Shown: piece by piece, positions 45,563-46,018 of the stretch
Layout of the letters: each line of letters starts with the position of its first letter
Position numbering within the stretch: position 1 is the first letter of the stretch
Origin: a phage
Reading direction: 5' to 3' (one strand)
Sequence record: PZ445437.1
DNA: 64,000 nucleotides
Made by a program: the position numbers and the translations under genes
Notes under the pieces: model-generated
What the model saw: the letters and a program-made list of their open reading frames with translations, nothing else
The model's database searches: none
What the model was told of the DNA's origin: nothing

Positions 45563-46018
45563 TTATTTTAAATCATCTGCCCAATCGAGTTTAAGAGGCT
45601 CTTTGTATTCACGGTCAAGTACAACCGGAATTTGTACATCACCGCTAAATGATAAGGGCCCAACATTATAAGACAATGTTATATGCGGTGTGTAATCATC
45701 AAAATCATGCGTAGCACCTAGTGCCCGCGCATACATGTGTCGACAGCGCAGATATTCAGAATCTAGCACAAGTACAAGAGTCGATCCATCTTGTGTTTTC
45801 CATACTTCTAAATGTCCAGAAGAAGCTACTTCAAAACTTCAACTCGATGGAACATATGGAACATTTACTCTTGAATAACATATAGTTGAATGAATTTTTT
45901 CTCTAGGAACTGGATTAGGAACACGTAAAGAGCGCTGAAGTTCTTCCAGCGCATCAAGTGTTAATTCTGAAAACTTAGCTGCTACATAAAGACCCGTTGA
46001 AAAGTCTTTAAATTCCAT
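45563..46018 (-). pseudogene. 57B: 57B homologue interrupted by an in-frame TGA (codon 60)
   Basis: ATG at 46018 overlaps 57A stop (TAATG); single frame of 152 codons to the stop at 45563 with TGA at 45841..45839; T4 57B is 152 aa as recalled. Confidence 0.55.

Follow-up and report, generated by a model that had tools for sequence, protein, structure and literature searches.

In-frame opal stop codon in acb1, the gene 57B homologue of phage Bas43

Immediately downstream of the tail-fibre chaperone gene 57A, the phage genome studied here carries a gene 57B homologue whose reading frame is broken by a TGA and then continues in the same frame. In T4, 57B encodes Acb1 (Hobbs et al. 2022, PMC9117128). 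This anti-CBASS enzyme, a cyclic-oligonucleotide phosphodiesterase of the 2H type, is a phage nuclease of broad spectrum that breaks down the signals used in CBASS (and cA3) immunity. The locus raises the question of whether this phage makes the enzyme at all. The original prediction, which was based on the DNA letters alone, offered three answers: a recent nonsense mutation, a sequencing or assembly error, or a gene expressed by UGA read-through with a truncated and a full-length product.

An Acb1 frame interrupted at codon 60

When translating the minus strand of the window, that is, the whole 64-kb stretch of DNA that was analysed, from the ATG at 46018, which overlaps the 57A stop codon as TAATG, we obtained 59 sense codons, the TGA, and 91 further sense codons in the same frame up to a terminal TAA at 45565-45563 (Table 1). 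This translation bears out the predicted in-frame TGA within a single 57B-type frame, and it agrees exactly with the 59-residue peptide that had been quoted for the part before the stop. The size of 152 codons that had been given for the gene is correct if the final stop is counted but not as a protein length, because the frame has 151 amino acid positions plus the TAA. DNA alignments showed that the 152 amino acids annotated in T4 arise from an extra upstream ATG, the sequence being ATGATG in T4 and ATAATG here; 151 amino acids is the common form of the Acb1 protein. The list of open reading frames (ORFs) shows only two pieces at this locus, one of 59 amino acids and one of 68 amino acids that begins at an internal GTG.

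Table 1. Positions of acb1, its interruption, and neighboring features in the window
Feature	Coordinates	Strand	Evidence
acb1 (T4 gene 57B homologue) frame, 151 positions plus TAA	45563..46018	-	Translation, Pfam PF23474, PDB 7T26
Premature opal stop TGA, codon 60	45839..45841	-	Alignments, codon table
Truncated 59-aa product, QXV84986.1 (bas43_0260), first catalytic half only	45839..46018	-	Exact-sequence look-up, ORF list
68-aa ORF from internal GTG (codon 84), QXV84985.1	45563..45769	-	ORF list, exact-sequence look-up
First catalytic HxT motif, His43-Ser-Thr45 (T4 H44/T46), 5' of the stop	45884..45892	-	Sequence, PMC9117128
Second catalytic HxT motif, His112-Ile-Thr114 (T4 H113/T115), 3' of the stop	45677..45685	-	Sequence, PMC9117128
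Gene 57A (tail-fibre chaperone), intact; TAA overlaps the acb1 ATG	46018..46260	-	98.75% identity to T4 gp57A

In an exact-sequence look-up, the 59-aa product had a single match, the protein bas43_0260 of Escherichia phage TadeuszReichstein (BASEL Bas43), whereas a look-up of contigs encoding it gave no record. The 68-aa ORF matches the adjoining accession and was attributed to the same phage by this adjacency. On the basis of these exact protein look-ups, the genome in the window is that of BASEL phage Bas43.

The proposed identity as a 57B homologue was confirmed in three ways. With the stop masked as X, the full frame matches the Pfam family PF23474 (Anti-CBASS protein Acb1) with an E value of 8.6e-60 and 201.1 bits against a cutoff of 27, covering profile positions 1 to 144 of 144. 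The Acb1 structure PDB 7T26/7T27 is matched at an E value of 2.9e-61, and the T4-type gene order (gene 1, 57A, 57B, internal-protein gene) is present. Each half also matches the Pfam family by itself, the N-terminal half at profile positions 1 to 51 (E value of 2e-18) and the C-terminal half at positions 78 to 144 (E value of 7e-26), which shows that the continuity of the frame across the TGA is due to homology and not to chance.

The active site of Acb1 is an HxT/HxT tetrad of H44, T46, H113, and T115, and the H44A/H113A enzyme is inactive (PMC9117128). Both motifs are encoded here, HST by codons 43 to 45 and HIT by codons 112 to 114. Since the TGA lies between them, the 59-aa product is left with half of the active site and without the C-terminal lid. 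Compared with T4 gp57B, this is the same gene: it follows 57A, overlaps it at the start codon, and encodes both motifs. It differs in starting at the second ATG of T4's ATGATG, which gives the common 151-aa form, and in having TGA instead of GGA at codon 60, so that only the first 59 residues can be made. Owing to this TGA, there is no uninterrupted ORF for the whole domain. The locus is an Acb1 family member by descent and, by its coding capacity, effectively a pseudogene.

The naming of this family in databases can be misleading. Many RefSeq records label Acb1-type proteins as "RNA ligase," a label presumably inherited from the 2H/LigT superfamily, and few say Acb1 or phosphodiesterase. The representative of the Acb1 cluster at 90% is a 152-aa protein (WP_411401821.1) labelled Enterococcus faecalis, on a contig of 3,075 bp. 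Other members of this cluster are labelled Escherichia coli, Shigella, or Salmonella and lie on contigs of about 165 to 350 kb. These bacterial labels probably reflect T4-like phage DNA in bacterial assemblies, either as contamination or as co-sequenced phage.

Origin of the stop codon

The change from GGA (Gly) to TGA at codon 60 is a single G-to-T transversion on the coding strand at position 45841 (C to A on the plus strand). In DNA alignments, the codon is GGA in T4, AV122, ZCEC15, phage 132, and Bas40. It is GGT in two Mosigvirus phages, and the residue is also glycine in the Erwinia phage FBB1 protein of known crystal structure. The ancestral codon had been guessed to be TGG (Trp); the alignments replace this with GGA. 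All of the remaining 150 residues (150/150) are identical to those of Acb1 from T4, AV122, Bas40, and phage 132. Against the nearest genes, those of AV122 and Bas40, only two bases differ: one makes the TGA, and the other gives a synonymous ACG at codon 103. Since the ACG allele is matched exactly by ECML-134 and KMB42, it is shared, which leaves the TGA as the sole private change in the gene.

We searched for the stop allele elsewhere with a 71-nucleotide probe centred on the TGA. A 100% match was found in none of the 532 matched phage records, and the best matches were all 70/71. The phage collection behind these records does not hold the Bas43 record itself, which explains why none reached 100%. 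The exact mutant 29-mer gave zero matches in three contig collections (viral, genome, and metagenome); the wild-type 29-mer, by contrast, was found. The 91 codons downstream of the stop show no secondary decay. Taken together, the single G-to-T change, its standing as the sole private difference, and the undecayed downstream codons support the first of the three predicted explanations, and we infer that the stop arose recently. We consider it very probable that the nonsense allele of acb1 is genuine and causes loss of function, rather than being a site of programmed read-through.

A single-base change seen in one record only could also be an error, in which case the TGA would exist only in the deposited sequence and the real phage would have GGA and an intact acb1. 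We found no report of an independent resequencing of the site, and the published statements on it rest on the deposited genome and on phenotype. However, the change is a substitution in nonrepetitive sequence (AGT TGA AGT) and not a homopolymer indel, and the assemblies of the BASEL genomes come from Illumina NextSeq reads with a typical depth of 50 to 100x. In addition, two laboratories found that Bas43 deviates in phenotype from relatives with an intact acb1 in the way that loss of acb1 would predict. Published acb1 primers (GGAAGCAGAAATTGCAATAGCA and CACATATTACAGAAGCTGGATTGC) match the window exactly at 45142-45163 (plus strand) and 46349-46372 (minus strand).

The rest of the window bears on the same point. 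We ran all 109 annotated T4 coding sequences of the corresponding region, translated, against the window with tblastn. Among the 92 T4 orthologues, the only one with a stop in mid-gene and an otherwise near-identical protein is 57B, and no other window gene is privately disrupted. The search also flagged 55.1, 55.3, vs.5, and vs.8. The first two differ at their C-terminal ends only. The frame differences of vs.5 and vs.8 from T4 recur exactly, over 101 nucleotides, in other natural phages, which makes them circulating alleles and not errors. These matches also show that the phage collection has the density needed to bring shared variants to light. Generally poor sequence quality in the window was therefore rejected as an explanation, the flagged genes being shared alleles or C-terminal differences. 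With a non-homopolymer substitution, Illumina depth, a clean window, and a phenotype from two laboratories, an error at codon 60 is highly improbable.

The differences in vs.5 and vs.8 (34394-34568 and 35793-35915, both on the minus strand) lie near the 5' ends of the genes. The vs.8 variant is shared exactly with phage AdolfPortmann, and the vs.5 variant is shared with 86 records. Either the two genes exist here as alternative alleles, or the gene models of T4 are not applicable.

Expression across or after the stop codon

UGA is the stop codon that leaks most in E. coli, and the RF2 of K-12 strains is weak. When followed by A, as it is in acb1, UGA is a fairly weak terminator in this species. 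Trace read-through of the acb1 TGA is possible, and the downstream frame is fully intact, but we saw no sign of selection for such read-through. Functional read-through would go further, giving the 59-aa product together with a meaningful amount of full-length Acb1, by means of a near-cognate tRNA-Trp, a suppressor tRNA, or selenocysteine. Near-cognate read-through of UGA would insert tryptophan, which in this protein would be expected to replace a glycine whose conservation extends from T4 to the Mosigvirus phages and Erwinia phage FBB1. A stop at this codon in none of the 532 related records also argues against a conserved recoding site. Low levels of Acb1 can be biologically effective in plasmid assays (PMC12657230), which speaks for this reading, but Bas43 behaves as an acb1 null against type II Panoptes.

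We looked for the elements that such recoding might use. Scanning the 64-kb window, which includes the T4-type tRNA cluster, gave 10 tRNAs (Arg-tct, His, Asn, Tyr, Met, Thr, Ser-tga, Gly-tcc, Leu-taa, and Gln-ttg), none of them with a UCA anticodon. A UGA suppressor can arise from the T4 tRNA-Arg by mutation; here, the tRNA-Arg is unchanged (tct) and no tca anticodon is present, so a phage-encoded opal suppressor was rejected. An Rfam scan at E values of up to 10 found no SECIS or other Rfam element (best E value of about 8). The 81 nucleotides around and after the stop do not form a stable structure (z = -0.51; 58 of 200 shuffled sequences fold as well). Selenocysteine insertion and a structured read-through signal were rejected on these two results. 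The read-through offered in the original prediction is thus unsupported: related phages do not have the stop, and a suppressor tRNA, a SECIS or other Rfam element, and a stable structure were not found. We regard functional read-through as very unlikely, and a loss-of-function nonsense allele remains the preferred reading.

The tRNA cluster itself lies at 42109-43701 on the minus strand. Relative to the eight tRNA genes of T4, its 10 genes include His, Asn, and Tyr as gains, and Pro is missing. The tRNA with the cat anticodon, Met(cat), probably corresponds to the T4 tRNA-Ile. A gene for a SegB-like GIY-YIG endonuclease (55% identity to T4 SegB) is located within the cluster at about 42867-43415.

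Two polypeptides might instead be translated independently, with the 59-aa and 68-aa pieces reassembling into an active two-lobed enzyme. In the 2H phosphoesterases, the two pseudo-symmetric lobes each carry one HxT motif. The deposited genome has annotations for both ORFs, and annotations of the 68-aa ORF exist in phages 132 and SV76 as well. However, residues 61 to 83 are absent from both pieces, and the published phenotype is one of loss of function. Moreover, no Shine-Dalgarno sequence precedes GTG84, ATG95, or TTG115, the in-frame codons for a restart (the 20 nucleotides upstream of GTG84 are ATGGATCGACTCTTGTACTT), by which internal re-initiation in acb1 was rejected. The two-ORF organisation with independent starts was not seen in the relatives examined, which have one intact ORF. 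In phage 132 (MZ417521.1, 2324-2782, minus strand), acb1 is an intact 151-codon gene with GGA, of which only the 68-aa C-terminal ORF is annotated; this is a short gene call. Recurrent inactivation of acb1, as the 68-aa ORFs of phages 132 and SV76 might suggest, was dismissed on the evidence of phage 132, in which the gene is intact and the annotation an artefact. We give almost no credence to a split but active enzyme. The 68-aa ORF of Bas43 is a mechanical ORF call and is probably not expressed. For annotation, the deposited 59-aa and 68-aa ORFs are best treated as parts of a single broken acb1.

The published Bas43 allele and phage defence

The acb1 nonsense mutation itself is already known from the literature, in which a [quoted passage not shown] was described (Nature 2025, Extended Data Fig. 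7d, PMC12657230). It appears to be the same allele as the one studied here, bas43_0260 fitting the gp260 locus, and we could detect no difference between the two. Our analysis adds the exact base change (GGA to TGA at Gly60), its privacy, and the absence of recoding signals. The BASEL phages are mostly sewage isolates obtained on E. coli K-12 MG1655 delta-RM (PMC8594841).

As a natural control, Bas43 has served to show that Acb1 activity is sensed by Panoptes guard systems. It is naturally Panoptes resistant (PMC12657230). In the case of type II (cA3) Panoptes, Bas43 escapes while the acb1-intact phages Bas35 to Bas37 are restricted (PLoS Biol 2026, PMC13577387, Fig. 3C), and escapers of Bas35 gain single-nucleotide mutations in acb1 (PMC13577387). 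These published plaque phenotypes indicate that the acb1 activity, cleavage of 3'3'-cGAMP as well as cUA, cAAA, and similar signals, is lost. The Bas35 escapers and the engineered T4 delta-acb1 (PMC13577387, PMC9117128, PMC12657218) resemble Bas43 in that acb1 is inactivated, by a single-nucleotide change or by deletion, and that the cyclic-nucleotide depletion that triggers Panoptes is removed. Unlike the Bas43 allele, which was already in the sequenced isolate, they were selected or built in the laboratory. Losses are also known for acb2 (PMC12657218, PMC12657230): a premature stop in the Pseudomonas phage PaMx41, a deletion in G2540, and T68M in Acb2 of Bas35. As with acb1 of Bas43, a counter-defence gene acting on cyclic nucleotides is lost or weakened in a natural isolate; in these cases, however, it is the sponge Acb2 that is affected and not the nuclease Acb1.

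We propose the following sequence of events for Bas43. Translation from the native ATG would stop after 59 residues, giving a product with the first HxT motif only and missing the second lobe and the C-terminal lid. With no active Acb1 nuclease, cyclic di- and trinucleotide immune signals would no longer be degraded by the phage. Panoptes guards fire on the depletion of such nucleotides and would spare this phage, as seen for Bas43 in published plaque assays. By the same reasoning, Bas43 would be expected to be more exposed to CBASS and to other cyclic-nucleotide defences. A natural acb1 null in a widely distributed reference phage affects how the BASEL data on defence sensitivity are to be read.

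The type I phenotype calls for caution. In T4, deletion of acb1 gave no relief from type I Panoptes (VnOptSE), and acb2 was the necessary trigger (PMC12657218). In the window, acb2 (vs.4, 34091-34354, minus strand) is intact and 94% identical to that of T4. It keeps Y8 and T68 and has five substitutions (E13D, L44F, N46S, C50D, and F52L). Since the type I trigger in T4 is acb2 and acb2 is intact here, the link between the acb1 stop and type I resistance is correlative. The stop alone is not obviously behind the type I resistance of Bas43, and the acb2 substitutions may be relevant to it. Loss of acb1 function is better supported by the type II result together with the Bas35 escaper mutants.

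The trade-off between counter-defence and guard systems has already been discussed in the Panoptes papers. It is conceivable, though we think it unlikely, that the opal stop, rather than being a neutral accident of the laboratory, is a naturally selected attenuation that keeps Acb1 below the level that trips Panoptes in wild hosts, either fully or with trace read-through. If so, it would be a natural case of a phage surrendering counter-defence to evade a guard. The evidence fits natural selection and drift on the K-12 host, in which no selection for acb1 is known, alike.

Outside acb1, the window differs from T4 in gene content. Downstream of acb1, an 83-aa internal-protein-like gene (45251-45502) stands in place of ipI. 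The window does not have denV, ipI, ipII, ipIII, nrdC.4 to nrdC.7, I-TevII, and 49.2/49.3, nor most of the mobD.1 to mobD.4 block. Such differences are typical of the mosaicism of T-even phages.
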